The notes under the pieces are model-generated. The model had not been told where the DNA came from. It saw only the letters and a list, made by a program, of their open reading frames with translations, and did not search any database. Positions 1 to 19,332 of a stretch of 19,332 nucleotides of DNA are shown piece by piece; position 1 is the stretch's first letter, and the number at the start of each line of letters is the position of its first letter. Location: assembly GCA_016839445.1 (NCBI GenBank), contig JAEOUG010000109.1:1-19332 (forward strand), in the 5' to 3' direction. This stretch comes from Candidatus Thorarchaeota archaeon. GTDB lineage: Archaea; Asgardarchaeota; Thorarchaeia; Thorarchaeales; Thorarchaeaceae. The translations under genes and the position numbers were made by a program.

Positions 1-2
1 AG

Positions 3-1523: not shown

Positions 1524-2289
1524 CGAGCTCATCCAGCAGCTGGTCGAGACTCTTCTCTCCTACGACTACCGCTCTGGCAGTTTCGGTGGAAACGGATCGT
1601 CTGCTGCGCGTGGCTCTTCTTACCAGGGTCTTCAGTGACTTGATGTAACCGGGCTTGGCTTCAAGAGTCAAGTCACCATCCACCATCGCTCTCCCCCTTC
1701 GTCCCGCAATCAAGATGGCAGATGACTCATTCGATCCCGGTCCGCCTGGCAGCGTGGTGCCTTCTTCGTTGACGACCTCGATTTCTTCCTTGCTCAGGAC
1801 ATCAGATACTGCTCTGAAGAGGAGCACCGAGAAGAGGCGTGAACCTTCACCTATTCTCACAATGGAATTGCATCCGGGAAAGACCGATGCTACTGCACTC
1901 TTCAGACGCACAACCGCCTCGGCGGTTGCTCGAGGAGAACCAAACGAGTTCTGAAAGAGTGTGTGTCCGTCTGTTACCAAGGCTATGCCAGACATCATGC
2001 CTGGATCGACACCAATGTAGGCATATCTAGGGTACTCGATATCGTGGAGGCGAGCAAGCAGGCCAATTGTCAACAGGAGTGCGTCAAAACCCTCCTCCAC
2101 AACCAAGGGATCAGTGGTTCCAGTTCTATGTGCTTCTGATGGCGTAGTGAGAATGACCTTGGCATCACATAACCGTTCATCGCCTGGGGTACACAAGATG
2201 AAACTGAGCTCGAGGCGCTTCAGGAGCTCAACAAGAAGATACATGAGTTTGGGATTCTCTGTCGCGATAGCAGCCTGCCATCTGTGCAT
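1501..2289 (-). CDS. Conserved archaeal protein with a YqgF/RuvC-like RNase H-fold domain (putative nuclease)
   Basis: YIGVDPGMMSGIALV strand-1 motif, IVRIGEG, VNEEGTT and NESSAILIA match the YqgF-like pattern (GxDxG...DERxTT...DxxAAxxI). Start moved to ATG 2289 because the region upstream holds the TATA elements. Confidence 0.65.
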   Translation of the reverse strand: MHRWQAAIATENPKLMYLLVELLKRLELSFILCTPGDERLCDAKVILTTPSEAHRTGTTDPLVVEEGFDALLLTIGLLARLHDIEYPRYAYIGVDPGMMSGIALVTDGHTLFQNSFGSPRATAEAVVRLKSAVASVFPGCNSIVRIGEGSRLFSVLLFRAVSDVLSKEEIEVVNEEGTTLPGGPGSNESSAILIAGRRGRAMVDGDLTLEAKPGYIKSLKTLVRRATRSRRSVSTETARAVVVGEKSLDQLLDELAKRGKSS

Positions 2290-2311
2290 GGTGAGGAGAC
2301 ATCCAGATACG

Positions 2312-2324
2312 CTTATCACTTAAA
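2312..2324. promoter_or_regulatory. Back-to-back TATA-like elements between the YqgF-like gene and radB
   Basis: CTTATCA on + (TTAT 27 nt before GTG 2344) and TTTAAG on - (29 nt before ATG 2289), inside a 54-nt divergent spacer. Confidence 0.5.
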
Positions 2325-2343
2325 CGAGGATATCCATCCGAGA

Positions 2344-3045
2344 GTGAGTCAGGATTTGATTCTTCCGTCTGGAGTTGGTCTGCTTGACCGGATCATGATA
2401 GGAGGGTTGCACACCGAGGCGATTACTCACATATTCGGAAGAGCGGCCTCGGGGAAGACTACCTTGGCACTTCAGTTCGTTAGCTCTTCGTTGAAACTTG
2501 GGTATGGCTCCATCTACGTCAATACAGAAACAGCCTCTCCTGTCACAAGATTGGAGCAGATCACAGGCGAGGAGTACTCGAAGATTGAGAGCAGGGTCAA
2601 GATGCTATCCCCAAGGGGTTTCGAGGAACAAGGAGCTCTGATAGATGACCTCGACCTCTACGCACGCGAAGACACCAAGGTGATTGTGATTGACACTCTG
2701 ACTAGGCATTACAGGCTGAACATGGATGACCGAAAAACGAACTATCGGAACCACCGGGAGCTCAACCGACAGGCGGGAGTACTGAAGGGCCTGGCACTGA
2801 AGCGCGGCCTTGCTGTGGTTGTTGTGAATCAAGTTACATCACGGCCAGACGGACAAGAGGAGTTCGAACCTGTGGCAAGAAACATCCTCTCGTACTGGTC
2901 AGACTACACGGTTAGAGTCGGGACAGCAACCAAGACAGCAGAACGAGTCATCCGGCGACTCTCACCAGAGGGGACTCCGAATGAGGGGAGACTCTACCTC
3001 TCGGCACAGGGCTTCATTGTGACACTGCCAGATGAGAAAGAGTGA
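2344..3045 (+). CDS. radB: DNA repair and recombination protein RadB (RadA paralog)
   Basis: RecA core without an N-terminal HhH domain: LPSGVGLLD..GG, Walker A GRAASGKTT, YVNTE, Walker B IVIDTL, VVVNQV, ILSYWSD. Start likely GTG 2344, since the track start at 2284 overlaps the divergent gene. Confidence 0.82.
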   Translation: MSQDLILPSGVGLLDRIMIGGLHTEAITHIFGRAASGKTTLALQFVSSSLKLGYGSIYVNTETASPVTRLEQITGEEYSKIESRVKMLSPRGFEEQGALIDDLDLYAREDTKVIVIDTLTRHYRLNMDDRKTNYRNHRELNRQAGVLKGLALKRGLAVVVVNQVTSRPDGQEEFEPVARNILSYWSDYTVRVGTATKTAERVIRRLSPEGTPNEGRLYLSAQGFIVTLPDEKE

Positions 3046-3082
3046 AATTGCCCGCAGTGGGCTGAAGCACGGAGTCCCGAGT

Positions 3083-3643
3083 ATGTATGAAGAGCTAGCC
3101 ATCCTGGAATTGGCGGTCTGGTTGGGCCTGCCTGCGTGGATTGCGAATGCAGTGCCAGTGCTGGGAGGTGGAGGACGGCCAATTGATGGAGGCGCATGCT
3201 TCCGGGACGGCAACCGTATCTTGGGAGATGGAAAGACCATTCGTGGATTCATTCTAGGAGTTGTCTTTGGAACCCTCGTCGGAGTTCTTCAGTTTCTTCT
3301 GGCCCCCTTCCTGAGGCCCCTTCTTGAGATCTTCGTGACTGTATCGACAGACATGGACTACGTGCTCTCGATGCAGATTCCGGCTGCATTCCTCATGTCA
3401 TTAGGAGCACTCACCGGCGACTTGGTGGGATCATTCGTGAAGCGTCGTGTGAATGTCAGGAGCGGAGACCCTTCTCCCGTCCTTGACCAGATTGGCTTCA
3501 TAATAATGGCCCTCATCTTTGCTGCCCCGGTTCTTCACCCAGAACCTGCCTACGTCATCGTTCTGATTCTCATAACTCTGGCGATACACTGGGTTAGCAA
3601 TGCCATGGGCTATGTGTTGGGTCTGAAGAAGAATCCTTGGTGA
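3083..3643 (+). CDS. carS: CDP-archaeol synthase (DUF46)
   Basis: LPAWIANAVPVLGGGGRPIDGG, RILGDGKTIRG, GDLVGSFVKRR, PVLDQ and C-terminal GYVLGLKKNPW, with several TM segments. Start ATG 3083 preferred; 3032 is possible. Confidence 0.93.
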   Translation: MYEELAILELAVWLGLPAWIANAVPVLGGGGRPIDGGACFRDGNRILGDGKTIRGFILGVVFGTLVGVLQFLLAPFLRPLLEIFVTVSTDMDYVLSMQIPAAFLMSLGALTGDLVGSFVKRRVNVRSGDPSPVLDQIGFIIMALIFAAPVLHPEPAYVIVLILITLAIHWVSNAMGYVLGLKKNPW

Positions 3644-3783
3644 GAAGCGAAATTGGTAGTGATTCTCAAAGATAGACATAAAAGGTAACCCAGAACTCCA
3701 TACTGTTGCTTCAGACCAGCTGAGCGTATGATTGCCGGCGGTCGGACGGAGCGAGTATTCTAAGAGCCGGAGTAGCTTCGACA

Positions 3784-4638
3784 ATGATGGTAAAGGACTG
3801 CATGCAATCAGATGTGGTGTATGTTTCAGTACCCGGTACAAGAGATGATGTACTTCAGGTCATGGCTGAGAAGCAGATTAACGGTGTGCCTGTAGTCAAG
3901 AAGGGGACCAAGAACCTCGTAGGAATGGTGACCCGGACAAACCTGCTGAAGAAGGCAGACGAGAATCAGCTGGCTCTGCTCATGGTTCGCGATCCCACAA
4001 CTGTAACGCCTAGAACAGACATCAAGACAGCCCTGAAGACCATGATGGCCCATGAATTCAGAAGGCTCCCAGTGGTCGAAAAGGATGAACTTGTAGGTCT
4101 GCTCTCGGTTCCGGACATCCTTGGAGCTACACTTGAGGATGATGAGAAGTACGGTTCTCAGGAAATATCGAAGTACGTCAACAGGAATATTGCAGCAGTC
4201 TGGGAAGAAACGCCAGTTTCGCTAAGCTATATGATTATGGACATGGCAGGTACGAATGGTCTTGTCGTCCTGAATGCGGGAGGTGGCGTCACGGGTATGG
4301 TCACTGTGAGCGACTACATCAAGCTCTCAGAGGTGACCGTTGAAGACAATGTATCGAAGACCTTCAGCGGAACAGACAGTGCTGTGGAGTGGGGTTGGAC
4401 CTCGCAGGACTTCCTGGTAGTCACAAAGAAGCTCCTCAAACTCCCAAATGTACCTGTGAAGGAAGTCATGACGAAGGATATCATCAACTTCACAGAGATA
4501 ACGACAGTCTCAGAATGTGTCCGCACTCTGAGAAACGAAGAGATTGACCAAGCCCCAGTGTTGTCCGTTAAGGGGAATCTCGTCGGCATGATTGAGGATC
4601 ACGGGCTACTGACCCTTGCTCTCGAGTCACTAGGCTAG
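3784..4638 (+). CDS. CBS-domain protein (four CBS repeats, two Bateman modules)
   Basis: Repeated CBS motifs: VKDCM..VVYV, GVPVV..LVGMVT, RRLPVVE..LVGLLS, VTGMVTVSD, VKEVMTKDI, QAPVL..LVGMIE. Confidence 0.9.
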   Translation: MMVKDCMQSDVVYVSVPGTRDDVLQVMAEKQINGVPVVKKGTKNLVGMVTRTNLLKKADENQLALLMVRDPTTVTPRTDIKTALKTMMAHEFRRLPVVEKDELVGLLSVPDILGATLEDDEKYGSQEISKYVNRNIAAVWEETPVSLSYMIMDMAGTNGLVVLNAGGGVTGMVTVSDYIKLSEVTVEDNVSKTFSGTDSAVEWGWTSQDFLVVTKKLLKLPNVPVKEVMTKDIINFTEITTVSECVRTLRNEEIDQAPVLSVKGNLVGMIEDHGLLTLALESLG

Positions 4639-7600: not shown

Positions 7601-8231
7601 TGGCGTAGAGTTCTACTTCTTCTAGATATCTCTCAACCTCTTCTGGTGTGGCTCTGAAGGCTGGAAGCTTCAGCACCTGACGAACATAGTCAGCCACAAG
7701 CACCGTCATCGCAGCCTCAGTTCCACCTGCAGCTCGGATTGGTCCTGCAAGGAAGAGCGCAAGATAGAGATCATCGTCAGACCCCCGTATCTTCACCTCT
7801 GATATGCCTTCAAGAGGTGCCGCTGTGATACTCTCCGTTAGGATAGATAGAGCCACGCGTACAGCCTTGTCTGCAGCCTTCTCCTTATCCTGCCGTTTGA
7901 TGCTCTCTGGTGGTAGAGATGGATTGTAGAAGTCCCCTAGTTTTCCCTCGGCGATCTCCTTGGCCACAGCAAGTGCAACTCCCTCGCGAGAGAGGTCCTT
8001 CTGGAGTTCCCTGATCCTGATTGCTACGCCTTTTGGTCCTTCCAGAGTGGCCTCTACACGTCCGGCAACGTCGTGTGCGCGAGGAATCTCAATCCGGGTG
8101 GTAGGGTCAAACCCCATCACGCGGGCCTTCTCCGCAATGTCATAGATTCTACTGACTTCATCACTTAGGGATTCGAAGTACTCCCCATATGCCCTGCTAT
8201 GAGGAGGTAGGGTGAAGCCTTCATCTGACAC
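4635..8231 (-). CDS. polC: DNA polymerase D large subunit DP2
   Basis: AGPIRAAGGT, IAGRPVF, GGFRLRYGRSRNTG, ERPGKG, GARMGRPEKA, DGTARFDATD, GLAPHTSAG, catalytic HAAKRRNCDGDED, C-terminal CxxC...CxxC and PIP box QTTLSEFF. Confidence 0.98.
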   Translation of the reverse strand: MSDEGFTLPPHSRAYGEYFESLSDEVSRIYDIAEKARVMGFDPTTRIEIPRAHDVAGRVEATLEGPKGVAIRIRELQKDLSREGVALAVAKEIAEGKLGDFYNPSLPPESIKRQDKEKAADKAVRVALSILTESITAAPLEGISEVKIRGSDDDLYLALFLAGPIRAAGGTEAAMTVLVADYVRQVLKLPAFRATPEEVERYLEEVELYARNVHLQYPVHPEMVRFAAAKLPIMLNGDPTEEFEVTGSRDLPRIGEDNRVRGGAVLVLNDGVVGRAAKLAKIVSSTGMEGWEWLDELTALETKTKTEEEISPDQMLEPKSDYISDVIAGRPVFSHPSRIGGFRLRYGRSRNTGLAGVGIHPATMFIVEEFLAPGTHIRTERPGKGSIVAPVDTIEGPIVLLKNGSVRKISDVDEARHLEGRVKRIIALGDILVALGEFLENNHPLAPSGYCEEWWSHNLDEAVSQLTEKQLSKRLSGSELSIIDLNEMVESPLARIPSEEEALHLSKNIGVPLHPRYLYRWSVLSPEELLNIRNWILSEYTLSKQKEGEYISLPRDTAFKQLLEKVGIPHRVSSDKKSLILTDHPSPIIAQMGNIERKPVGETALQMLNSVSDVVLKDKLGFSIGARMGRPEKAQERRMKPPVQVLFPVGRSRGTERVVDKVAASIEYQSSLDPQSGGPDAMTGDVDAAGVKVELVSRICPKCGKPQFESRCPDCKVHTTLYPWCGKAGCNRPINPSKGTCEEKHLDPPRHTLEWQVDLKEMLERVKSEIGEYEAHGVRGVLGLTNAKKIPEYLGKGILRAKHDVYCYRDGTARFDATDAPLTHFTPREIEVPIAKLEELGYLNDYLGNPLVSPDQIVELKVQDIIVPENCADYLLRVGRFVDDCLEKVYGQGRYYDFRTQDDVIGQLIIGLAPHTSAGIIGRIVGFTNASVCYAHPYWHAAKRRNCDGDEDAILLVMDALLNFSKQYLPSGKGGLMDAPLVLSVILNPTEVDDESHNIEVCRRYPAQFYEMVAKARHPKEVERLVDIVKYRLATEAQYEGFGFTHNTSSIDRGPQNSRYKILPRMSEKLDAQLRLAQMIQAVDAQDVATRVLMRHFFRDIRGNLRAYSTQKFRCLSCNEGFRRIPLSGKCEKCVKEGKEGKISLTVRQSNISKYLETTEKLIRENGLDEFMQERLRLIRSSMDSLFISEQTTLSEFF

Positions 8232-8317
8232 TGTGAGTCTTGGGGACCTTGAACGAATGGCTATTCTGTGTTTCGTTGGCCGCGCCGTTTGCAGCTCGCC
8301 GAAATTGAGTAGGGAGA

Positions 8318-8323
8318 TTTAAA
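8318..8323. promoter_or_regulatory. Palindromic TATA box (TTTAAA) between divergent polC and rpa
   Basis: The clearest AT-rich hexamer in the 153-nt spacer; it reads the same on both strands. An SD-like AAGGTGA precedes the rpa ATG at 8385. Confidence 0.5.
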
Positions 8324-8384
8324 GGAGAACTGCTGAACGAGTAGATAGTCGGGGTTGCCGACCACATAGAACAAGGTGACTTGG

Positions 8385-10172
8385 ATGCTTACCCTTGAAG
8401 AAACAATTGAGCTCATCCTGAAGCATAGAACAGACTATGAGAGAAGTCACATTCTCGAGATGGTCAAGGAGAAGCGTCAGGAACTCGGCCCTGAAGTAGT
8501 CAATGACGAGTCGGCTGCGATGATAGTAGCGAGGGAACTGGGCGTTGACTTGCACAGGGCAACTCCACAGGCACGAACAAGAATCAAGGACATATCACTC
8601 TCAACAAGGAATGTCAATCTCTATGCCCAAGTCAAGAGCATAGGTGACGTGAGGACGTTCTCGAGAAAGGATGGAGGACAGGGTAGAGTAGCAAGTCTTA
8701 CACTGGGCGATGAAACAGGCACAGTCAGGCTCGCGCTGTGGGATGAAAAGACAGACATCCTCAAGGAAGATGCGCTCTCCGTGGGATGTATAGTGCAGAT
8801 CATGAAGGCCTATGTTAGAGAGGGACTCGGCAATGCACTGGAGCTGAACCTTGGCAGAATGGGAGGCATTAGGATTCTTGAGGACTATGAAGTTGATGAG
8901 GAGAACCTGGACTTCGGGGGCCAAGAAGGCGGAATGGAGTTTGTCGAGATTCGGAATCTAGAGGCTGGCAAGTACGATGTCAGCGTGAAGGCCAAGGTAA
9001 GATGGGTCTCAGATGTAAGCGAATTCACCCGGAAGGACGGAACTACTGGACGCGTCATGAGTGTCTTCGCCGCGGACGAAACAGGTTCAACACGTATCGT
9101 CTTCTGGGATGAGCGGGTTGATGACGCCAAGGGCGTTGAAGTGGGAGAGGTAATCGCCGTAGAGAGAGGCTACACCAGACTCAGTTCAAGGAACAACGAA
9201 GTCGAGTTGCACACAGGCAGGTCTTCAGAGGTCAAGCGCGGACTTGATGATGATATCGAAGTGTCGTCTTCCGACGCGCCCCGTCAGGAGTCGAAGCCTC
9301 TAGGACGAAAGAACATTGAGGACCTCACAACAGGAATGTGGGATGTGGACATCGAAGGGCAGGTAGCGATGGTTCACGAAGTCCGGACCTTCCAGAAGAA
9401 GGATGGCGGAGATGGAAGGGTGCAGAACCTGATTCTTGTTGATAAGACAGGGAGAATCAGGACAGTGTTCTGGGATGACGATGTGGACACTATCTCCTCG
9501 GTGAAAGAGGGGGATGTCGTCAGAATCAGCCACGCCTATGTCAAGGAGGGATTCATGCAGGCATTGGAGGCGGTCGCTGGACGAAGCTGTGAAATCACAG
9601 TCAACCCCAAGGACAGTGATCTTATCAGCCTAGACCTTTCAGGAGTCACTGAGCAGGCCTCTGTTGTTCCCTCGAGAGTCACTATTGGGGACATCGGTGA
9701 CGATATTGAGGGCAAGACGGTAGAGGTCTATGGAATTGTGGTTGGCATTGGACAAGCAAGCCCCATCTATCAGGCCTGCCCGGAATGTAACAAGAAACTC
9801 GAACAGACAGAGGACGGCTTTTACTGTCGCACGTGTAGCAAGGGCATCGACGAACCCGAGCCGCGGATGTTTTACAAGATTACGCTTGATGATGGCACTG
9901 AGACCATCCGAGCAACAATGTTTGGAGACGTGGCTGAGAAGCTGCTGGGCCTTACCGCTAAGCAGGCTATGGACATGATAGTCAAAACTGGGAACATCAG
10001 CGAGCCGATTCGTAGGAATTCCGATAAGATACTTGGCCGGTATCTGTGCGTTGTTGGCAGAATCAACAAGTTTAGAGACTCAATAGAGATCTCGGCTGCA
10101 GGATTCGACTTCGCGGATCCAATAAAGGAGATCAAGAGACTGAAGGCCAGCATCAAGAATGAGATTGGCTAG
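8385..10172 (+). CDS. rpa1: Replication protein A large subunit (N-terminal helical domain, four OB folds, zinc finger)
   Basis: N-terminal ESAAMIVARELGV helix; three OB repeats (F.RKDG..GRV...DETG..R..WD); a fourth OB fold with YQACPEC...CRTC and LDDGTETIRATMFG; C-terminal amphipathic helix. ATG 8385 follows an SD-like AAGGTGA. Confidence 0.92.
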   Translation: MLTLEETIELILKHRTDYERSHILEMVKEKRQELGPEVVNDESAAMIVARELGVDLHRATPQARTRIKDISLSTRNVNLYAQVKSIGDVRTFSRKDGGQGRVASLTLGDETGTVRLALWDEKTDILKEDALSVGCIVQIMKAYVREGLGNALELNLGRMGGIRILEDYEVDEENLDFGGQEGGMEFVEIRNLEAGKYDVSVKAKVRWVSDVSEFTRKDGTTGRVMSVFAADETGSTRIVFWDERVDDAKGVEVGEVIAVERGYTRLSSRNNEVELHTGRSSEVKRGLDDDIEVSSSDAPRQESKPLGRKNIEDLTTGMWDVDIEGQVAMVHEVRTFQKKDGGDGRVQNLILVDKTGRIRTVFWDDDVDTISSVKEGDVVRISHAYVKEGFMQALEAVAGRSCEITVNPKDSDLISLDLSGVTEQASVVPSRVTIGDIGDDIEGKTVEVYGIVVGIGQASPIYQACPECNKKLEQTEDGFYCRTCSKGIDEPEPRMFYKITLDDGTETIRATMFGDVAEKLLGLTAKQAMDMIVKTGNISEPIRRNSDKILGRYLCVVGRINKFRDSIEISAAGFDFADPIKEIKRLKASIKNEIG

Positions 10173-10174
10173 CC

Positions 10175-11416
10175 TCATGAGCTCGCCTTGATCAGCGACT
10201 CGATGGCCTCTAAGAATCTGTCGACATCATCCATGTTGTTGTAGACATAGAAGCTCGCACGTGCAGTGCCCTTCTTGGGGTCGATTCCCATCTGGTAGTG
10301 GAACGGTCCTGCACAGTGCCAGCCGCTACGTATCATGATGTTATGCTCATCGTTGAGGAATCCTGCAACATCATGAGCCGAAGGGACCGTGCTGACGACA
10401 AAAGTCACTAGCCCGACCCTCAAAGATGCATCACTTGTGCCGAATATCCTGACTTCATCCATTTCAAGAAGTCTCTTCAGAACCCGCTCAATCAGCGACT
10501 TCTCATGCTTCTCGATCTCGTGCATTCCTATTGATTGTAGATAGTCTGCAGCTGCAGCCGCACCGATAGCCCCTGCGTAGTTCTGAAGACCGGCCTCGAA
10601 CTTCTCAGGAGGCGGAAGATACTCGGGAAGAATGACTCCATCTTCATATCGTACATCACTTACTGTGTCGCCACCGTACAGGCACATCTGCATGGACTCC
10701 AGGAGTTCGAGGCGTCCGTACAGCACGCCCATGCCTGTCGGACCACACATCTTGTGGACAGAGATAGCAGAGAAGTCTACACCGGAGTCTTGGACGTCCA
10801 TAGGATGGTGTGGCGCGTATTGTGCATCATCAGCAACAACTATTGCACCTCTGTCGTGTGCGATCTCAACAATAGCCTCCAGTGGAGCGATTGTGCCAGT
10901 AACGTTGGAGCAATGCACAAGGGAAACTAGCCCCGTATTCGAGTCAATTGCCTCCTTCCAGTCTTCAATATCAAAGGTTCCATCAGGACGGGCCTCTACA
11001 ACGTGGAGTTTCAGGCCATCTCTTCGAGCTCTTTCTACGAAGGGCAGTGAGCCACTATGATGCTCAAGAGAAGTAGTAATGATCTTCGACCCCTTGTCGA
11101 GCTTGACCGAGCTAGCTACGATGTTCAGTGACTCTGTTGCGTTGCGTGTCCAAACGCACTCCTCGGGTTGGGCGGCGTTGATGAACCGAGCGAATCTCTT
11201 CCTAGCACCAGCGTACGCATTAGAGGCCTCTTCTCCGAATCGGTGAACGCTCCTGCCGGCACATGCTGGGTACTGCTCGTAGTACTCGTTCATTGCATCA
11301 ATTACCTGCTTTGGTTTCATAGCCATACAGGCACTGTCGAGATAGACGATAGGGCGTCCATTGATCCTACGATTGAGGGCAGGGAAGTCCTGCCTGACAA
11401 GTTCCCAGTCAACCAT
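10175..11416 (-). CDS. sufS: PLP-dependent cysteine desulfurase / selenocysteine lyase, SufS/CsdA type
   Basis: VRQDFPAL..VYLDSAC..KP, LEHH, SNVTG, DDAQ, PLP lysine motif HKMCGPTGMG, FEAG and catalytic loop IRSGWHCA, then RASFYVYN. Confidence 0.92.
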   Translation of the reverse strand: MVDWELVRQDFPALNRRINGRPIVYLDSACMAMKPKQVIDAMNEYYEQYPACAGRSVHRFGEEASNAYAGARKRFARFINAAQPEECVWTRNATESLNIVASSVKLDKGSKIITTSLEHHSGSLPFVERARRDGLKLHVVEARPDGTFDIEDWKEAIDSNTGLVSLVHCSNVTGTIAPLEAIVEIAHDRGAIVVADDAQYAPHHPMDVQDSGVDFSAISVHKMCGPTGMGVLYGRLELLESMQMCLYGGDTVSDVRYEDGVILPEYLPPPEKFEAGLQNYAGAIGAAAAADYLQSIGMHEIEKHEKSLIERVLKRLLEMDEVRIFGTSDASLRVGLVTFVVSTVPSAHDVAGFLNDEHNIMIRSGWHCAGPFHYQMGIDPKKGTARASFYVYNNMDDVDRFLEAIESLIKASS

Positions 11417-11421
11417 TGCAC

Positions 11422-11655
11422 TCAGTCCTTGAGCAACTCCCAGCGATATCCGCCCTTTCCGAACGTCTTCTTGATTAGCCCGTGTTCCACAAGCTGATTA
11501 GCAGCAGCAACAAAGGCATCGCCACCTGCGCAGTCGTGACAGAGGTCAGAGTATTCCTCCTTCCGCGCCATCTCAAGAATGTCAACAGTTGACAACGAAT
11601 TAGCCTGGCGGAGTATTGCCAATACACATCTTGCGTTCTTTGAGAGGTCGGGCAT
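11422..11655 (-). CDS. Small (77 aa) winged-helix-like protein with a CxxC motif
   Basis: MPDLSKNARCVLAILRQANSLSTVDILEMA...LCHDCAGGDAFVAAANQLVEHGLIKKTFGKGGYRWELL has a helix-helix-helix plus beta-wing pattern (L...GLI...W). It ends 5 nt before sufS. Start ATG 11655 preferred over 11751. Confidence 0.7.
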   Translation of the reverse strand: MPDLSKNARCVLAILRQANSLSTVDILEMARKEEYSDLCHDCAGGDAFVAAANQLVEHGLIKKTFGKGGYRWELLKD

Positions 11656-11719
11656 CGCAAGCGAGCGGAGGCATGACTCAATATGAAAGCTTCGCAATAA
11701 TCCAACATCTCGTTTCATC

Positions 11720-11733
11720 AAAAGTCTTAAATG
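11720..11733. promoter_or_regulatory. BRE/TATA-like element in the divergent spacer between the wHTH gene and elf1
   Basis: AAAAGTCTTAAATG: a purine-rich BRE plus TTAAAT on +, and TTTAAG on -. An SD-like GGTGA lies just before the elf1 ATG. Confidence 0.45.
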
Positions 11734-11815
11734 AATACACACGCGGGTCACCTCGCTCTATTTCTTGCGGGGCTTTAGCTCTGACTTGTGTGAAATAGGC
11801 AAAGGGTGATTCATC

Positions 11816-12061
11816 ATGGGTAGAAGAAGAAGACAGAAGACTCGGAGAAGGCCACCAAAGAGGATTCCCGATGTTTACTCGTGTCCGGATTGTGGTAACA
11901 CCGCAATCAAGATTGACCTCTATCGGGACAACGAGATGGCCATAGTGAAGTGTGGGTCTTGTGGTCTAGAGATGACAATTACTGATGTGAATGCCCTGAC
12001 TGAACCGGTTGATATCTACGGCTCCTTCATTGACAGATACTACGGCGAAAGGAAGCCCTAG
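11816..12061 (+). CDS. elf1: Transcription elongation factor Elf1
   Basis: Basic N-terminus MGRRRRQK, zinc ribbon CPDC...CGSC and the signature LTEPVDIYGSFID. Confidence 0.95.
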   Translation: MGRRRRQKTRRRPPKRIPDVYSCPDCGNTAIKIDLYRDNEMAIVKCGSCGLEMTITDVNALTEPVDIYGSFIDRYYGERKP

Positions 12062-12095
12062 ACCTTTGAGTACACCCTTTGGAACTCAGCAACGG

Positions 12096-12101
12096 TTATA
12101 A
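12096..12101 (+). promoter_or_regulatory. TATA box (TTATAA) heading the microprotein-hypothetical-lhr-engB unit
   Basis: Consensus TTATAA ending 30 nt before ATG 12132. Confidence 0.6.
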
Positions 12102-12131
12102 GCAGACCCAATCCGAGGCCACCAGATTCGA

Positions 12132-12248
12132 ATGCAATCGCTTGACACCATCAACACAATCCTGTTTCTCATAATGGCAGCACTGGGAGTCATAGCTCTA
12201 GTTCTGACCATGGGATACATGGTTTACGGTGAAACAGAAGAGGAGTAG
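12132..12248 (+). CDS. 38-aa single-transmembrane microprotein (not in the ORF track)
   Basis: Hand translation gives MQSLDTINTILFLIMAALGVIALVLTMGYMVYGETEEE*, with one long hydrophobic stretch and an acidic tail. The upstream TATA box is correctly spaced. Confidence 0.65.
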   Translation: MQSLDTINTILFLIMAALGVIALVLTMGYMVYGETEEE

Positions 12249-12267
12249 TTGCACGGAAGTAGATCCG

Positions 12268-12501
12268 ATGAACATTGCTCTTGTTCAGACTGCTTTTAGT
12301 AGAGTCATGGGTCATATCACGAATGTTGAGTCAATGAAGACGATTGTAGATGATACAGTACAGACTGAGGACTCACTAGAGTCTGCAATCAGGAGTCTTG
12401 AGAAGCGGCTAGATGGTGCCGAAGTGACCCTAAGAACAGACATCCGCATCTTAATCAACGAGTGTCGGCACTTGATGATGGGTAGTCGAGCAGATGAGTG
12501 A
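12268..12501 (+). CDS. Hypothetical small alpha-helical protein (77 aa)
   Basis: MNIALVQTAFSRVMGH...TLRTDIRILINECRHL, with amphipathic helices. The stop overlaps the lhr start (ATGAGTGA). ATG 12268 preferred. Confidence 0.6.
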   Translation: MNIALVQTAFSRVMGHITNVESMKTIVDDTVQTEDSLESAIRSLEKRLDGAEVTLRTDIRILINECRHLMMGSRADE

Positions 12502-15331
12502 CCTCTCGATATTTGGCACCGAGATGCAGAAGTTCCTCAATGCAGCAGGAATTGTGAGTTTCACTCCAATTCAGGAGAGAGCAATTCCCACAATTCTGAA
12601 AGGAGGAGAGAACGTACTCCTCTTGGCTCCCACCGGAAGCGGTAAGACTGAGGCGGCCTTGCTTCCACTTCTCGAAAGACTACACCGGATGAAGAGCGCG
12701 AGAGATCTCTTCGGATTCTACATTCTGTACATCACGCCACTGAGGGCGCTGAACCGGGATGTCTTCAAGCGGATTCAGGACCTCTGTGAGCATCTTGGTT
12801 TGACTGTAGAGGTCAGACATGGCGATACTACTCAATATGCAAGGCGAAAGCAGGCAATCACTCCACCGAACCTCCTGATTACCACTCCAGAGTCCCTTCA
12901 GGCAATCCTTCCGGGGAAGCGCCTGCGATATCATCTGAAGACAGTGTTTGCGGTGGTTGTTGACGAAGTACACGAATTGGCGGACAGCAAAAGAGGCGTC
13001 CAGCTTAGTCTGGGGCTGGAGAGGCTTGAGAGAGTGGCTGGGACGCGTATAGAGAGAATAGGTCTCTCTGCAACCGTCGGCAACCCGGAAGAAGTGGGAT
13101 CACTCCTCAGTGGAAAGCAGAAGGCACGGACCATCTGGGCAGGATATGGGCAGAGGGAGATGGAGCTCAGGGTGGAGATGCCCGAGCCTGTGGAAGAGAC
13201 TAATGCGCTGGCGAAGAAGCTGGCATACCCACTCCATTCGACAGCTAGGCTCAACTACATAGTTGACCAGGTCTCAAATCACGAGTCCACAATCGTGTTC
13301 ACAAACACGAGATCGTTTGCAGAAGTCCTAGGAGCGAAGATGCACTTGCTGAACCCACCGTACGAGTTCGATGTGCATCATGGTTCGCTCTCGAAGGAGG
13401 TTAGAGTGGGCGCAGAAGACAGACTAAAGGCTGGAAAGTCGAGAGCAATCATAGCGACCTCGAGCCTTGAGCTTGGTATCGACATCGGACAGACGGACCT
13501 GGTCATTCAGTACTCGTCACCCAGAGAAGTGGCAAGACTCCTTCAGAGGTCTGGACGGTCTGGACATGGAGTGGGGGGGAAGGCCAAGGGCCTAGTACTA
13601 TCAACAGTGAATCTGGATGATGTGACGGAGTCAGGTGTCATCGTCAGACGAGCTAGGGCAAACAAGGTCGAAGATGCGGAAATACCGAAGAAGAGCTGGG
13701 ATGTACTCTGTCACCAGATAGCGGGCTTCTTGCTGGACGAAGGGGAGGTGTCGAAGGAGGACCTATTGAGCTTCCTGAGAGGGGCATACCCCTACTCTGA
13801 TGTCACCGCAGAAGAGCTCGAGAGCCTTCTATCCTTCATGCAGACGAGGAAACTCCTTGAGCAGGACGGCGGTCTCTTGAAGAGACACGCTCGGACACGC
13901 GTCTTCTACTATGAACGTCTGAGCACAATTCCCGACATTCGACAAGTCCCAGCCATAGACATGACAACGAGGACATCAATCGGTGTGCTAGACGAGGACT
14001 ACGTGAGCGCAAACGTTGAGGCAGGGTCAGTCTTTGTGATCAGAGGACGCCCTTGGACAGTAATAAGCGTTGACGACGAAACTAGCGAGGTTGTCTGTGC
14101 CCCAACCACAGGTGCAAACACCGACATACCAAGATGGATTGGTGAGATGATTCCCGTACCGTACGAGGTTGCTTCTGAGGTCGCAGAGGTGTGGAAGACA
14201 TCAGAAGAGAGAGGAGAGGGAGCTCAGAAATGGCTTCGAAAGGAATATGGATTGGCGGATAGGGCCCGGCGTCATCTTATCGAATCAGTGAGATTGGCTC
14301 AAGAGGCCTTAGATGTCATTCCGACAGTCGATAATCTCGTACTGGAGGACTTCGGAACAGGCCTTGTGCTGCATGCGCCCTTGGGCACTCGGGCCAACGA
14401 ATCACTTGGCATAGTCATCGCATCTCTTCTTACAACAAGACTGGGATTCGATATTGGTGTTGAGCGGGATCCGTATAGGATTCTCTTTACTTCAACAGAG
14501 AGGATAGAACCAGAAACTGTGATAGAAGTGCTGAAAGACTACAATCCCAATCAAGCATCACAAATCCTGCGGCTAGCTGTGAAGAACACTCAGAACTTCG
14601 CCTCGAGATTCATTCATGTGGCAAGACGTATGGACGTAGTGAAGAGAGACGCGAAACCCCGTGGAATTCCTGTGAGAAGGCTAGTGAAGTCGTACGAGAA
14701 TACGCCGCTCTTCGAGGAGACGATGAGAGAGGTGCTCGAGGAGAAGATGGACGAGGAGCGAATGAGGAGTGTCTTCGATAGGTATGAAGCAGGGGCTCTC
14801 AGAGTCCATGTTGCGAAGACGGAGCATCCCTCTCATCTTGCGCGTCTGATAATTGAGGAGAAGACCCGCTTTGAGGTCATGGGCGAAATCTCGGAAGAAG
14901 ACGAAGTACTCAGAATGATGCATGAGCGACTCCTCTCAAAGCAGTTTCGTCTTGTGTGTATGGCAGGAGTTCATTGGGACTCGGTAAGAACCGTTTCGAC
15001 TATGGAGGAGGATATCACTTGTCCAGTGTGTGGTGCGAGAATGATTGCAGTCCTGAGCCCCTCCAATGACTTGTTCAAGAAGACCCTCGCGAAACGTGTC
15101 CGTGGCGATACACTTACGAAGCAGGAACAGAAGGACTATAATCAGGGTGCCTTAACAGCACAGTTGGTCTCGAGGTACGGGAGGAAAGCACTCCTGGTGC
15201 TTGCTGGCCGCGGAATAGGTCCGAGAACAGCCTCGCGGATACTTAGACCCGGCCTAGTGGAGCGCAAGGAGATCCTCCGAGCGATTGCAAGAGGCGAGAT
15301 GGAGTATGAAAGAACTAGGCCGTTCTGGTGA
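12494..15331 (+). CDS. lhr: Lhr-family ATP-dependent SF2 helicase with C-terminal Cys-rich and HhH-like region (aLhr1-like)
   Basis: APTGSGKTEAA, YITPLRALNRD, RHGDT, TTPESL, DEVH..KRG, GLSATVGN, HHGSLS, TSSLELGIDIG, QRSGRSGH, PRWIGE; C-terminal CPVCG and LAGRGIGPRTASRIL. Confidence 0.93.
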   Translation: MSDLSIFGTEMQKFLNAAGIVSFTPIQERAIPTILKGGENVLLLAPTGSGKTEAALLPLLERLHRMKSARDLFGFYILYITPLRALNRDVFKRIQDLCEHLGLTVEVRHGDTTQYARRKQAITPPNLLITTPESLQAILPGKRLRYHLKTVFAVVVDEVHELADSKRGVQLSLGLERLERVAGTRIERIGLSATVGNPEEVGSLLSGKQKARTIWAGYGQREMELRVEMPEPVEETNALAKKLAYPLHSTARLNYIVDQVSNHESTIVFTNTRSFAEVLGAKMHLLNPPYEFDVHHGSLSKEVRVGAEDRLKAGKSRAIIATSSLELGIDIGQTDLVIQYSSPREVARLLQRSGRSGHGVGGKAKGLVLSTVNLDDVTESGVIVRRARANKVEDAEIPKKSWDVLCHQIAGFLLDEGEVSKEDLLSFLRGAYPYSDVTAEELESLLSFMQTRKLLEQDGGLLKRHARTRVFYYERLSTIPDIRQVPAIDMTTRTSIGVLDEDYVSANVEAGSVFVIRGRPWTVISVDDETSEVVCAPTTGANTDIPRWIGEMIPVPYEVASEVAEVWKTSEERGEGAQKWLRKEYGLADRARRHLIESVRLAQEALDVIPTVDNLVLEDFGTGLVLHAPLGTRANESLGIVIASLLTTRLGFDIGVERDPYRILFTSTERIEPETVIEVLKDYNPNQASQILRLAVKNTQNFASRFIHVARRMDVVKRDAKPRGIPVRRLVKSYENTPLFEETMREVLEEKMDEERMRSVFDRYEAGALRVHVAKTEHPSHLARLIIEEKTRFEVMGEISEEDEVLRMMHERLLSKQFRLVCMAGVHWDSVRTVSTMEEDITCPVCGARMIAVLSPSNDLFKKTLAKRVRGDTLTKQEQKDYNQGALTAQLVSRYGRKALLVLAGRGIGPRTASRILRPGLVERKEILRAIARGEMEYERTRPFW

Positions 15332-15929
15332 GAAGAAACCGATTATTGTGTTTGCAGGGCGCAGTAACGTAGGCAAGAGCAGTTCCATTCGCGCCCTAAC
15401 CGGAAAGAAGCTTCGAGTCGGGAAGAAGCCTGGCAGTACTCGGTGGGAAACAATGATTGACCTTGGAACCGTACAGATTGCGGACATTCCAGGATTCGGT
15501 TTCATGGCCGGTCAAAGCAAGACAGCAATTGATGAAACCAAGAACAGAATCGTACAGGTCTTGGAGCAATGGTCGGAGCGGCTTATTCTGTCAGTCCTAA
15601 TCATTGACATCTCGCTGTTTCGCGAGCTCTACGAGCGGTGGTCTGGTCGGGGGGAGATACCGATTGATGTGGAGTTCTATCAATTCCTCTCAGAGATTTC
15701 GGAGAACGTTATCGTCGTGGCGAATAAGTCGGACAAGCTGAAGGGACGCGAAATCCCTAGGGAAACTGAATTCCTTAGAGAGAAACTTCGAGAGGCAGTA
15801 CCGGATTCCCAACCCGAGATTCTGGTCACATCTTGCACAAGGAGAAGAGGCCTTACAGCACTGCGTGACCGAATCGATGCTACTCTTGTCCATAACGATG
15901 TCGAAGCACCCAGATGGGCAATCACCTGA
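15306..15929 (+). CDS. engB: EngB/YihA-family GTPase
   Basis: G1 GRSNVGKSS, G2 GKKPGST, G3 DIPGFGFM, G4 NKSD and the archaeal EngB segment RW..RGEIPIDVEFY.FL. ATG 15306 follows GGAG. Confidence 0.9.
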   Translation: MKELGRSGEKKPIIVFAGRSNVGKSSSIRALTGKKLRVGKKPGSTRWETMIDLGTVQIADIPGFGFMAGQSKTAIDETKNRIVQVLEQWSERLILSVLIIDISLFRELYERWSGRGEIPIDVEFYQFLSEISENVIVVANKSDKLKGREIPRETEFLREKLREAVPDSQPEILVTSCTRRRGLTALRDRIDATLVHNDVEAPRWAIT

Positions 15930-17013
15930 TCTTCTTCAAGACATAGTAGGCTAGACCTACAAGAAGGACAACAGATGAGATGATGAAGACCGTGCCGATT
16001 GCTCCGGGTACGTCCACAATATTCTCTGATAACCAGCTGAGGATATTCATGAAGAGACGTGAATTGTCGCCGGCATTGAGCCAGGTCAGCTCAGCATCAG
16101 GAAGCGGCAGAGTCCTTCCCGTAAACATCAGTGTTGAGCCACAGATAGCAACGCGCCCATTCCCAAACTCGAACGCGGACAGCCATCCAGGGTAGGTGCC
16201 GTTGATTGTGGAATACGATAGAGGAGCAGCCTCGAAGTCCGCCAGAGTCATGTTGGGGTACGAGTAGTTCGCCCAGGTTAGAGCGCTTCTCTTGTACTGA
16301 GCAAATGAGGTGTCGTAGCTCTTGCCAATGAGTGTGGAGTGATCGATTGGCTTCAGTGTGGCAGTCATCGTGTAGAGAACGTTGATGTTTCGGAAGATGG
16401 GGTGTCTTGTGTCCCATGTTGTCGAATCGAGTTTGATTACGTAAGGGTATGTTTCGTTGAGTGAGTTGTCGTAGTCAAACATGGTGTCACACTGAGGGTC
16501 GAACGTAGTCTGGTTCACGCTGAAACGAACACCAGTCATGTTCAAGTCGTCCAGAAGGGTATTGATGGCGAAATTCTCTCCAAGATTCTGGAGCAAAGCC
16601 TCATCCCAGTACTCAGTAGACTGGTCTATGGTTGGGTCCCCAAGGATGAAAAGGGAACTGCCGTTTGCCAGCATCTCGAAGATGCCACTCAGCTCCTCGG
16701 GCTCGAAAGGTGCGTTCTCGTCAGGCCCGGCGATGAATAGCACGTCAACGTCGCTCAGCATCTCATCATCGAGGGGTCCATCTTCCTCTATTCTAACGAT
16801 AAAACGAGTAGACGCATTTGCCATGTCCAGCACAAGCTGAAGCCCCCTGTCTGACTCGGTTGGTGAGAACTGCGGATTGTGACTTGCATCGACTAGAATC
16901 ACGATAGGATCCAAATCAGCTTGGGCATTCACGGTACCTTGTATACCCGAGAGGAGTAAGACTGCGGTCAGCATCAAGGCAACTATCTTGGGGACCCTAC
17001 GGAGATGACTCAT
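15922..17013 (-). CDS. Type I membrane protein with signal peptide and an extracellular GIFT/DUF4350-like domain
   Basis: Signal peptide (RRVPKIVALMLTAVLLL..VNA/QA), ILVDASH, LSDVDVLFIAGP...F.PEEL..I..ML.NGSSLFILGD, GRVAICGS..F, DNSRLFMNILSWL, C-terminal TM helix followed by KKIR. Confidence 0.7.
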   Translation of the reverse strand: MSHLRRVPKIVALMLTAVLLLSGIQGTVNAQADLDPIVILVDASHNPQFSPTESDRGLQLVLDMANASTRFIVRIEEDGPLDDEMLSDVDVLFIAGPDENAPFEPEELSGIFEMLANGSSLFILGDPTIDQSTEYWDEALLQNLGENFAINTLLDDLNMTGVRFSVNQTTFDPQCDTMFDYDNSLNETYPYVIKLDSTTWDTRHPIFRNINVLYTMTATLKPIDHSTLIGKSYDTSFAQYKRSALTWANYSYPNMTLADFEAAPLSYSTINGTYPGWLSAFEFGNGRVAICGSTLMFTGRTLPLPDAELTWLNAGDNSRLFMNILSWLSENIVDVPGAIGTVFIISSVVLLVGLAYYVLKKIR

Positions 17014-17094
17014 ATCCTGTAACCGACCTTCGTGCTCAGTCAGCGTGCCAGACCCGTGGCCGTGTTTTAAAGTTATCTTCAGTTCGAAGTGCCT

Positions 17095-17481
17095 TCAGTC
17101 AGTTCTTCGCCATTCGATGTACATCTGTCGTCGGTCCTGATCTGTTCCCTCACGTGACTCGTGCAGTCCACGAAGCTCTGCTATTCTCTGCGCTAAGAGA
17201 TGATAGCACATGTTGGTCTCGCGAGAGATGACTACATCCTGGTAGAAACTCCTGCAAGTGCAGTAGACCTCCGGAATGACCATGTATTCCCTCTTTTTTC
17301 CCCGGACAATCCAAGTCGAAGTTTCACTTGGACTGAAAGTGTACTTCACGACCTTGCCGTCCTCGGCGGCCTTCAATGCGCGGACGAATTTCTTACCATA
17401 CTTGTCCGTGAAGAACTCGATGTCAATCTGAAGTAGTTCATCCTTCTCGAGCCTTCTTGTTTCTGTGGGAGGAAGTACCAT
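17095..17481 (-). CDS. SWIM zinc-finger protein (SWS1/ZSWIM7-like)
   Basis: SWIM signature YCTCRSF...MCYHLLA (CxC-xn-CxH), preceded by RAL...FSPS...WIVRG...Y. Confidence 0.85.
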   Translation of the reverse strand: MVLPPTETRRLEKDELLQIDIEFFTDKYGKKFVRALKAAEDGKVVKYTFSPSETSTWIVRGKKREYMVIPEVYCTCRSFYQDVVISRETNMCYHLLAQRIAELRGLHESREGTDQDRRQMYIEWRRTD

Positions 17482-17511
17482 CTCTTTCAGGAAAACAGTG
17501 GTATGGCGAGG

Positions 17512-17518
17512 TTAAAAT
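17512..17518. promoter_or_regulatory. Central bidirectional TATA element between the SWIM and MPE genes
   Basis: TTAAAA on + ends 26 nt before ATG 17544; TTTTAA on - ends 30 nt before ATG 17481. Confidence 0.55.
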
Positions 17519-17543
17519 GTTGTAGGACGAAGTCTGAATCGCG

Positions 17544-18392
17544 ATGGAGATAGTCTTCGAGGACCGTGCAATGGTTGTTCATTTCACGGAGGAGTCTATT
17601 CTACTCCTCGCAGATCTTCATCTGGGATTTGAGCGAGAACTGGAGGAACGAGGTGTCATCGTTCCTTCTCAGCACAAGAGCATGCTTCCAAGAATCAAGC
17701 AGCTCGTAGATTCGCACAAGACCTCGACAATCTGCATCGTTGGTGACATAAAACACTCCATATTCCCAGACATCAACTACAACTGGGAGGTCATCCCGGA
17801 ATTCATGGAGAGCCTATTAGAAATCGCCAAGGTTGTTATCGTGCCTGGAAACCATGATGGTGACCTGCAGGCCTTCCTTCCCAGAAGTGTGGTCATGAGC
17901 GATTCTAGCGGCATTTCAGTGGACAGACCGGATGAGAAGCTGGGTGTCTTTCACGGTCATGCATGGGCGGCCCCGGAGCTGCTAGACGCAGACGTCATGG
18001 TAACGGCACACAATCACCCCGTTATACGCAGAATGCGTAATGTATCAATCGAGAGCATAGGCCGTGAGGGGAGGATGAGATATGGAAGAACCATTCCAGT
18101 CGTTGTCAAATCAAGACTGGACAGGAACTGCGTGAGAAGGGAACTCGGCATGCTCGAAATCCCGGATGAACCCCCAGCCAGCCTATTCACATTGCCTACC
18201 TTCAACGAGATGTTCTCCGGCGTCGCAGTGAACACCCCCACTAGTGCGTTTCATGGTCCGTTCTTCGAAAACGGCTGCGCCTTGCTCGGAGCTTCTGAGG
18301 TTTTCAGCACGACAGGGGTCTATCTGGGCGAGGTGTCCTGGTTAAGAGAGCAGTTCAACGAAACGATTAAATCTCGACCACCCGGGAACTGA
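17544..18392 (+). CDS. Calcineurin-like metallophosphoesterase, MPE/PdeM (SbcD/Mre11-related) family
   Basis: ADLHLGFE....G...P.Q, GDIKH, PGNHD, HGH, AHNHP and LPTFN motifs. Confidence 0.88.
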   Translation: MEIVFEDRAMVVHFTEESILLLADLHLGFERELEERGVIVPSQHKSMLPRIKQLVDSHKTSTICIVGDIKHSIFPDINYNWEVIPEFMESLLEIAKVVIVPGNHDGDLQAFLPRSVVMSDSSGISVDRPDEKLGVFHGHAWAAPELLDADVMVTAHNHPVIRRMRNVSIESIGREGRMRYGRTIPVVVKSRLDRNCVRRELGMLEIPDEPPASLFTLPTFNEMFSGVAVNTPTSAFHGPFFENGCALLGASEVFSTTGVYLGEVSWLREQFNETIKSRPPGN

Positions 18393-18413
18393 TTCTGCTA
18401 GATTTCTCAGTAT

Positions 18414-18490
18414 GGGTCGGTGGTCTAGCTTGGTATGATTCTTGGTTCGGATCCAAGGGATCGGGAGTTCGAATCTCCCCCGGCCCACCA
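18414..18490 (+). tRNA. tRNA-Pro (anticodon CGG), intronless, with encoded CCA
   Basis: Acceptor stem GGGTCGG/CCGGCCC, D arm GTCTAGCTTGGTATGAT, anticodon stem CTTGG/CCAAG with loop TT-CGG-AT, T arm GGGAG-TTCGAAT-CTCCC, discriminator A plus CCA. Confidence 0.95.
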
Positions 18491-18757
18491 CTACCTCCTA
18501 TCCTTCGTCTTTTCCTTCCGTCTTGGCATCGTTCCCGTGAATGGGCCCACACCATCAATGAGGCCTCTGCCCTGAACAGCACCCGCTCGTGCCCCGTGAT
18601 GAGTTTCTTCTGCGACCCTTGCAGCCGCAGTGGGGGTCTCATCCCTCTTCCGGTAGGTAGTAGCTCCCCGACGTCCCGATCTCGGCGCAGCAAGAACGAG
18701 GATAAGAGCCGCTATTACCACGCCGGCAATACCGATTAGTAACCAGCTCATAGACAC
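18491..18757 (-). CDS. Small N-terminally membrane-anchored basic protein (hypothetical)
   Basis: TM segment WLLIGIAGVVIAALILVLAA followed by an Arg/Lys-rich tail. TTAAAT on - (18791-18786) ends 28 nt before GTG 18757; ATG 18751 is an alternative start. Confidence 0.6.
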   Translation of the reverse strand: MSMSWLLIGIAGVVIAALILVLAAPRSGRRGATTYRKRDETPTAAARVAEETHHGARAGAVQGRGLIDGVGPFTGTMPRRKEKTKDRR

Positions 18758-18812
18758 AGCTCGAGAACTACTTGAGTGTGAGATGATTTAACTCTTGGCA
18801 GTCCCTTCTGTT

Positions 18813-19286
18813 CTATTCTCTCCCTCGGAGAGCATAGAGGACTACCGCGGCTGTTCCGGCGGGCCCTATGTCCACCTCTGCATGAAGGCTTCTGCAGTCC
18901 CCTTTGTCCATTTCTTTCCTTGAAAACGAGCTGCTACTTCCAGAGAGAATCAAGGCAATACGCTGACCGGATTTCACTAGGTCGACAATCTCTGAGACCT
19001 CAAGACGTTCCTTCGTCAGCTTTGGGGATGTTATCATCAGGGGACGTTCGATTTGCAGGGTTTCCAGAACATCAGGTAGATCGGGAAGAACCATGAAGTT
19101 GCGCTTCATCTTCAGTGCTAGTCGGTTGGCATCAGGAACACCAGACTGAGCCGCCGACCCCTCAGCCTTGGTAACAACGTAGTTTCGGTATCCCAAACCA
19201 TAGACCACTTGCGCAGTTTCCACAGTCTTTGAAGCAGAGTGTACGTTGTGCAGTACAACGTAGACATTGTTGAGATTCTCATTCAA
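18813..19286 (-). CDS. COG4080/DUF2122 SPOUT-like putative RNA methyltransferase (often labelled 'RecB-family nuclease')
   Basis: VVLHNVHS, VVTKAEGSAAQSGVP, VLPDLPD, ILSGSSSSFSRKE, DIGPAGTAAVVLY. TTG start with an SD-like GGAGGT 11 nt upstream. Confidence 0.75.
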   Translation of the reverse strand: MNENLNNVYVVLHNVHSASKTVETAQVVYGLGYRNYVVTKAEGSAAQSGVPDANRLALKMKRNFMVLPDLPDVLETLQIERPLMITSPKLTKERLEVSEIVDLVKSGQRIALILSGSSSSFSRKEMDKGDCRSLHAEVDIGPAGTAAVVLYALRGRE

Positions 19287-19332
19287 TGTGGTTCTTGACC
19301 TCCTTGTATAGTAGACGGGAAATCAGGGGTGG

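Follow-up and report, generated by a model that had tools for sequence, protein, structure and literature searches.

We analysed a 19,332-nucleotide stretch of DNA from a Candidatus Thorarchaeota archaeon (assembly GCA_016839445.1, contig JAEOUG010000109.1, positions 1 to 19,332 of the forward strand; hereafter the window). At 17095..17481 on its minus strand lies a gene for a stand-alone SWIM protein of 128 amino acids, which an earlier note made from the letters of the window had singled out by its sequence blocks and which we confirmed as an ATG-to-stop open reading frame (ORF). We conclude that this archaeal protein very probably belongs to the Shu2/SWS1 (ZSWIM7) family, to which its likeness extends over the full length.

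The SWIM protein and its likeness to Shu2 and SWS1

The translation of the gene reads ...KYGKKFVRAL...FSPS...WIVRG...YCTCRSFYQDVVISRETNMCYHLLAQ... and contains the zinc signature C74-T-C76-x15-C92-Y-H94-L-L-A97, encoded at 17191..17262 on the minus strand (C74-x-C76-x15-C92-x-H94-x-x-A97). This agrees with the signature given for the family, CXC...Xn...CXHXXA (PMC6316741, consulted in part). A word-indexed search returned 186 homologues at E≤1e-3; the named ones among them are nearly all from Candidatus Thorarchaeota or carry the JGI name 'predicted nucleic acid-binding Zn finger protein'. We then ran a hidden Markov model (HMM) built from 20 Thorarchaeota sequences only (profile A1) exhaustively with HMMER on 1.84 billion cluster representatives and obtained 412 representatives at E≤1e-3, 124 of them at E≤1e-10. 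Among the 150 relatives listed from this search, CxC..CxH was present in 142 and CxC..CxHxxA in 134, mostly with a spacer of 14–15 residues between CxC and CxH. In a set of 126 diverse members, C74, C76, C92 and H94 were invariant, and W57, G61, F79 and A97 were at least 90% conserved. The 20 Thorarchaeota sequences share 42 invariant columns, including the zinc ligands, A97 and the C-terminal RRTD, and W124, directly before RRTD, is at least 90% conserved in them.

The Pfam and NCBIfam libraries gave no match to the SWIM protein. The Pfam SWIM model, PF04434, did not match it at E≤10 (the gathering threshold of 19.6 bits was not reached), nor did it match anything else in the 2.9-Mb assembly, which is 89.8% complete. 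When applied to 32 distant relatives, PF04434 produced three SWIM matches, one of them above the cut-off (26.3 bits). Because the motif is present in a protein on which PF04434 is silent, we attribute this silence to the narrowness of the Pfam model.

An AlphaFold2 model of the protein (mean predicted local distance difference test score, pLDDT, 86.2; predicted template-modelling score 0.79) comprises, in order, three helices, three strands, two successive helices, a strand and a final helix. We take the gene product to be a small alpha/beta protein without enzymatic activity, with a Cys2-Cys-His zinc site stabilising the fold. A Foldseek search of the PDB with this model placed yeast Shu2 at ranks 1 and 2 (6dex_B, E 4.7e-3, query template-modelling score (TMq) 0.62; 5xyn_D, E 7e-3, TMq 0.67; probability 1.0), and from rank 3 down TMq was at most 0.37. 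VIA-align 2, which is independent of Foldseek although both rest on the predicted model, was run against 48,161 representative chains and aligned 123 of the 128 residues with 6dex_B (Z 9.9, root mean square deviation 3.0 Å, 21% identity). This was the sole chain at Z≥5; ZSWIM8 (9rwz_M) followed with Z 4.7 over 91 residues, and all others scored at most 3.2.

The sequence profile led to eukaryotes as well. Profile A1 reached eight eukaryote-type proteins (P0209, P0227, P0256, P0260, P0263, P0264, P0269 and P0270) with E values of 4e-13 to 1e-9. The nearest ESM Atlas cluster of P0264, 'ZSWM7 protein (Fragment)', is assigned to Chordata and is 100% Eukaryota (score 0.95), and one relative of P0264 comes from EukProt. 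The ESM Atlas neighbours of the archaeal protein itself are a Thorarchaeota cluster, a Thermoproteota cluster and a chordate SWIM cluster. We built a 10-sequence profile of ZSWIM7-like eukaryotic proteins (A3), and hhalign aligned A1 with A3 over 112 columns (residues 12–123) with a probability of 99.5%, an E value of 5.4e-23 and 29% identity. The model of P0264 (pLDDT 88) has its elements in the same order as the archaeal protein, after an extra N-terminal helix, and matches Shu2 with Z 8.7, below the value of the archaeal model. The computed A3 consensus keeps the block order FG..AL / PSG / V.G / Y..YCSC.F / CKHLLA. The likeness to SWS1/ZSWIM7 in size and block order, which the earlier note had pointed out, is thus borne out by the computed consensus, the profile alignment and the fold, and it reaches well beyond the SWIM motif itself. 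In one of the eight eukaryote-type proteins, P0269, the SWIM motif is broken by a long interruption.

Two caveats attach to the family assignment. Searches of the PDB by HMM or sequence with the SWIM protein, A1, A3 and A2 (a profile of the 126 diverse members) did not reach Shu2, so the link to the yeast protein rests on the fold and on ZSWIM7-like intermediates. In addition, the ZSWIM7 label of A3 derives from an automatic Atlas cluster name rather than a curated record, together with one EukProt member and a Shu2-like fold. That the ORF, or its CxC..CxH motif, arose by chance and is unrelated to SWS1 would fit the lack of any Pfam or NCBIfam match, but this possibility has next to no probability given hundreds of homologues with invariant zinc ligands, a confident model, a unique whole-length match to Shu2 and the hhalign result, which together refute it.

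Among characterized proteins, SWS1/ZSWIM7 of humans and other vertebrates, with its eukaryotic orthologues, is close to the archaeal one. Both are stand-alone proteins (128 residues here versus about 140–170 in ZSWIM7-like proteins) with a short CxC-to-CxH spacer of 14–16 residues, and in the models both run through two helices, three strands, CxC, a helix, the CxHxxA helix, a strand and a C-terminal helix. They differ in that the archaeal motif is mostly C-Y-H and the eukaryotic one C-K-H, in that the eukaryotic model's long N-terminal helix is missing from the archaeal proteins, and in a conserved Trp-containing tail (EWRRTD in Thorarchaeota) carried by many archaeal members; no counterpart of SWSAP1 or SPIDR was identified for the archaeal protein. 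Shu2 (6dex_B and 5xyn_D), a subunit of the yeast Csm2-Psy3-Shu1-Shu2 complex, is the sole solved structure with the same overall fold and the same zinc ligands. By contrast with the 15-residue archaeal spacer, however, a 59-residue insertion domain lies inside its SWIM motif and contacts Shu1, according to the part of PMC5727457 consulted. Generic SWIM proteins of the PF04434 type, such as ZSWIM8, share the CxC..CxH zinc knuckle, and ZSWIM8 is the second-best structural match; its likeness, however, is far weaker than that of Shu2 and covers less of the protein, and such proteins are large and multidomain.

Several relatives of the SWIM protein have acquired additional elements. In P0186 (491 amino acids), a LAGLIDADG-type intein interrupts the zinc motif CxC precisely at its second Cys, and P0223 (202 amino acids) has a helix-hairpin-helix domain (HhH_5) inserted between strands. 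Inteins and HhH inserts are both typical of DNA-handling proteins. A third relative ends in a C-terminal helix-turn-helix (HTH).

Gene neighbourhood and a possible divergent promoter

Head-to-head with the SWIM gene lies a gene for an MPE-type binuclear metallophosphoesterase (17544..18392, plus strand), a predicted endonuclease acting on single-stranded DNA (ssDNA). Its library matches are PF00149, TIGR00024 (SbcD_rel_arch, 89.6 bits, short of the 115.2-bit cut-off) and TIGR04123 (PdeM). On the other side of the SWIM gene, at a distance of 1.8 kb and with a membrane-protein gene and EngB in between, is a gene for an Lhr-type superfamily 2 helicase of 945 amino acids (12494..15331, plus strand; PF00270, PF08494 and PF19306). 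Clusters of Lhr-Core and MPE genes occur as two-gene units in both bacteria and archaea (PMC7826289). The window resembles such clusters in holding both genes, here with the SWIM gene facing MPE. It differs from those described in the part of PMC7826289 consulted, which pair Lhr-Core with MPE, optionally accompanied by Exo and ligase, and for which no SWIM or SWS1-like gene is mentioned.

The SWIM and MPE genes are divergently oriented around an intergenic region of 62 bp (17482..17543). When we aligned 22 Thorarchaeota intergenic regions with the window sequence, a single TATA-like element stood out as near-invariant in 19 of the 22. In the window it lies at 17507-17524 on the plus strand, with its TTAAAAT core at 17512-17518, midway in the spacer and about 30 nt from either start codon. 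This element may be a bidirectional promoter of SWIM and MPE.

The arrangement is conserved in Thorarchaeota. In 56 Thorarchaeota loci the order is DUF2122 - orf108 - MPE <-> SWIM - membrane protein - EngB - Lhr, with MPE adjacent to the SWIM gene in 47, the membrane-protein gene present in 54, EngB in 50 and Lhr in 44. Eight other Asgard families, numbered here with the prefix f, contributed a further 30 loci (±1.5 kb), in which the SWIM protein is only 34–51% identical. MPE adjoined the SWIM gene in 21 of these 30 loci, and Lhr lay within 1.5 kb in 15. The two genes were head-to-head in f7 (3/3), f12 (10/10), f15 (3/3) and f19 (4/4) and co-directional in f6 (1/1); MPE was not adjacent within the same ±1.5 kb in f3 (0/4), f21 (0/1) or f27 (0/4). 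Seven more divergent families (ten loci) had neither MPE nor Lhr next to the SWIM gene, and the same held for 80 f9-type metagenome loci (45 of them at least 4.5 kb long) found in a scan with five closer sequences. Six f9 genome loci likewise had no match to a RadB-like protein, a Walker-less RadA paralog, MPE or Lhr within 4 kb. MPE is the steadiest immediate neighbour of the SWIM gene, often with Lhr nearby.

The replication and repair genes of the window are those for XPD (3-1523), a RadB-like protein, PolD DP2, RPA, Lhr, MPE and a DUF2122 RecB-family nuclease; the first six are those that the earlier note had named for the same 19 kb, and all are present. The DUF2122 gene (18813-19286, minus strand) lies downstream of MPE and is found in 39 of the 56 Thorarchaeota loci. 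Also downstream of MPE, in 29 of the 56 loci, is a 108-amino-acid ORF without a family (18367-18693, minus strand), which partly coincides with the 3' end of MPE, in antisense, and is possibly not a real gene. The membrane protein encoded between the SWIM gene and EngB (363 amino acids; 15922-17013, minus strand) has a signal peptide and a C-terminal membrane anchor, and shows a weak ABC_transp_aux match of 29 bits, below the cut-off.

Distribution, phylogeny and RadA paralogs

To describe its distribution, we ran A2 on 301 genomes sampled from the Asgard phylum. The SWIM gene was found in 269 of them, including 88 of 90 high-quality genomes, and in 65 of 70 genera. Every positive genome had one match, except for G246, which had two. 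The gene is under strong purifying conservation and is present near-universally in single copy across the phylum. It was not detected in any of the five genomes of family f16 (G041, G058, G020, G031 and G050), two of which are 100% complete.

In trees that were all based on 131 columns only, the eukaryotic set formed one clade every time (SH-aLRT 94–99, ultrafast bootstrap 100), and this clade was nested among archaeal sequences in every tree, mostly Asgard or close to Asgard. Three IQ-TREE runs placed it next to the f9 group, with SH-aLRT values of 98 and 94 and with 79/88 in the posterior mean site frequency tree. Family f9 is an AT-rich Asgard family (28% GC) whose SWIM proteins are 51–56% identical to P0170. 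In two further trees, the eukaryotic clade stood beside other divergent Asgard families with low support. The sister of eukaryotic SWS1 thus varies between trees. The earlier description of the archaeal system as ancestral is plausible, in that the eukaryotic clade falls among Asgard sequences, but these trees do not settle on one sister group.

The source genome contains five RadA-family genes: RadA itself, a second RadA-like gene, the RadB-like gene of the window, which has an intact Walker A, and two core-only paralogs without Walker A. The RadB-like protein, also a core-only RadA paralog, is encoded at 2284..3045 on the plus strand; its Walker A reads GRAASGKT, and it matched PF08423 and TIGR02237 (radB, 127.5 bits against a cut-off of 172.4). 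Its distance to the SWIM gene is about 14 kb. The RadB-like and SWIM genes were separated by 12–21 kb of a single contig in the six other sampled genomes of f1 (Thorarchaeota) and in one genome each of f12, f19 and f21, but by 145–163 kb in f3 and f7. This spacing is loose regional synteny, not an operon; its recurrence in f1, f12, f19 and f21 suggests a long conserved replication and repair region. A short RadB-like paralog was present in five of five SWIM-positive genomes from five families. In a three-chain complex model of the RadB-like protein, MPE and the SWIM protein, the interface score ipSAE was 0.74, 0.75 and 0.73; it fell to 0.00 and 0.00 when the SWIM protein was swapped for unrelated proteins and was 0.78 when MPE was swapped, although with three chains the score may stem from the kept chain, so that the model counts neither for nor against binding of the SWIM protein to the RadB-like protein or to MPE.

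The two paralogs without Walker A, of 271 amino acids (contig C88, L004:1240-2055, minus strand) and 239 amino acids (contig C9, L005:1288-2007, minus strand), share 41% identity. Both are reminiscent of the Walker-less Rad51 paralogs in yeast's Shu complex, and each starts with an F-x-T-A motif, which we take to resemble the Rad51 polymerisation motif. We considered them as a universal partner of the SWIM protein and rejected this idea: of five SWIM-positive genomes from five other families, only one had a clear orthologue, so the pair is not a general partner. The second RadA-like gene (358 amino acids, 265 bits to NF003301; contig C46, L002:1246-2322, plus strand) lies about 6 kb from a gene for a Hel308-like helicase paralog (279 bits; C46:14399-15652).

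Candidate roles in DNA-damage processing

SWS1/Shu2 is a conserved non-paralog subunit of the Shu complex, which directs damage that blocks replication towards error-free recombination and which mice require for meiotic recombination. Each family member studied works as the non-paralog subunit alongside Rad51 paralogs, in a complex that sustains Rad51 filaments where damage is associated with replication (PMC6316741 and PMC5727457, both consulted in part). By analogy with these eukaryotic relatives, the archaeal SWIM protein would be an adaptor through which replication-blocking DNA damage is tolerated by way of recombination. As such it would dock onto a RadA paralog with the RecA fold, for which the ubiquitous RadB-like protein is the likeliest candidate, and this docking would help RadA filaments to form or persist on RPA-coated ssDNA. 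In Thorarchaeota and five other families, it would be co-expressed with the MPE nuclease from the shared divergent promoter, usually near the gene of the Lhr 3'-5' helicase, and its action may thus be coupled to helicase–nuclease processing of damaged forks or gaps. We consider this the best explanation, that is, a Shu2/SWS1 member acting as a recombination adaptor through a RadA paralog and coupled to MPE and Lhr, with a probability of roughly 55%. That the protein has some role in DNA-damage processing is likely, because its whole fold is kept and its gene lies in a repair-rich region, because a putative promoter region is common to its gene and that of MPE, the partner of Lhr, in six families, and because relatives have gained an HhH insert as well as an intein placed at the zinc site. 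The protein may bind a RadA paralog, MPE or Lhr directly, or all three.

A number of results count against the adaptor reading. The surroundings of the SWIM gene contained no RadA paralog, be it in the 56 Thorarchaeota loci (searched to 6 kb), in 40 loci from 15 other families (1.5 kb) or in the 80 metagenome loci (4 kb). RadB-like genes (E≤1e-15) were present in 35 of the 51 genomes with the SWIM gene and in 7 of the 10 without it, which is no association, in a count over 61 genomes that is limited by kinship, incompleteness and a strict threshold. With neither adjacency nor co-occurrence, the proposal of the earlier note that SWIM and RadB together form a Shu-type mediator did not find support in these comparisons. 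The coupling to MPE is also confined: adjacency was seen in six of 17 Asgard families (f1, f6, f7, f12, f15 and f19) and not in f3, f8, f9, f14, f17, f20, f21, f22, f26, f27 or f29. Finally, family f16, which lacks the SWIM gene and has no SWIM-like ORF beside its MPE gene, has Lhr and MPE in five of five genomes, RadA in four of five and a short RadB-like frame of about 238–242 amino acids in three of five. Because it keeps all four, f16 is uninformative as a phyletic test of the partner.

These same observations bear on two other explanations. The SWIM protein might instead be an accessory subunit of an Lhr–MPE repair module, a zinc-stabilised adaptor or a sensor of DNA structure, with no RadA-paralog partner at all; its likeness to SWS1 would then reflect common ancestry and not a shared type of partner. 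MPE is the sole conserved immediate neighbour (47/56 Thorarchaeota and 21/30 other-family loci), the TATA-like element is common to SWIM and MPE, Lhr lies within 1.5 kb in half of the other-family loci, a RadA paralog was never adjacent in the loci examined, and Lhr-Core and MPE together form a recognised repair cluster (PMC7826289, consulted in part). We nevertheless regard this explanation as rather unlikely, since the protein is kept in nearly all families whereas the adjacency is found in six of 17, since f16 has MPE and Lhr without a SWIM gene, and since the characterized family members all bind Rad51 paralogs, as stated in the part of PMC6316741 consulted. A purely local function is more doubtful still. 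As a nucleic-acid-binding zinc finger, the protein might regulate transcription of the divergent MPE gene, and of Lhr; a head-to-head layout with a shared 62-bp control region is typical of regulator–target pairs, the JGI name of the homologues points the same way, and, among the relatives, one bears an inserted HhH_5 and a different one an HTH at its C terminus. Such a regulator is improbable, however, because the fold is unlike that of known archaeal transcription factors among the 48,161 chains, the gene is kept in 11 of 17 families without an adjacent MPE, and Shu1–Shu2 does not bind DNA, according to the part of PMC5727457 consulted.

Returning to the recombination adaptor, a Shu-like complex with the RadB-like protein is plausible, and we tentatively extend it to an ancestral minimal Shu complex in Asgard archaea, a possibility to which we give well under even odds. 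In such a complex, the SWIM protein would bind the RadB-like protein, and in Thorarchaeota perhaps also the Walker-less paralogs, and would pass lesions or gaps processed by co-regulated Lhr and MPE to RadA; the eukaryotic SWS1–SWSAP1 and Shu2 systems would have been inherited from an archaeal ancestor and not have arisen within eukaryotes.

The existence of archaeal Shu2 relatives is probably not new, as Shu2 orthologues are called conserved 'from archaea to humans' in one sentence of PMC5727457, a source consulted in part. In the literature searched, we found no characterisation of archaeal members, no Asgard analysis or Asgard-wide distribution, no whole-fold evidence, no placement of eukaryotic SWS1 among Asgard sequences and no link of SWIM to MPE or Lhr. 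A full-length counterpart retained by nearly all Asgard genomes would mean that this mediator originated earlier than eukaryotes. At 128 amino acids and without the insertion domain, it would offer a minimal system in which to ask what the SWIM subunit does, and it would tie recombination mediators to the poorly understood Lhr–MPE helicase–nuclease pair.

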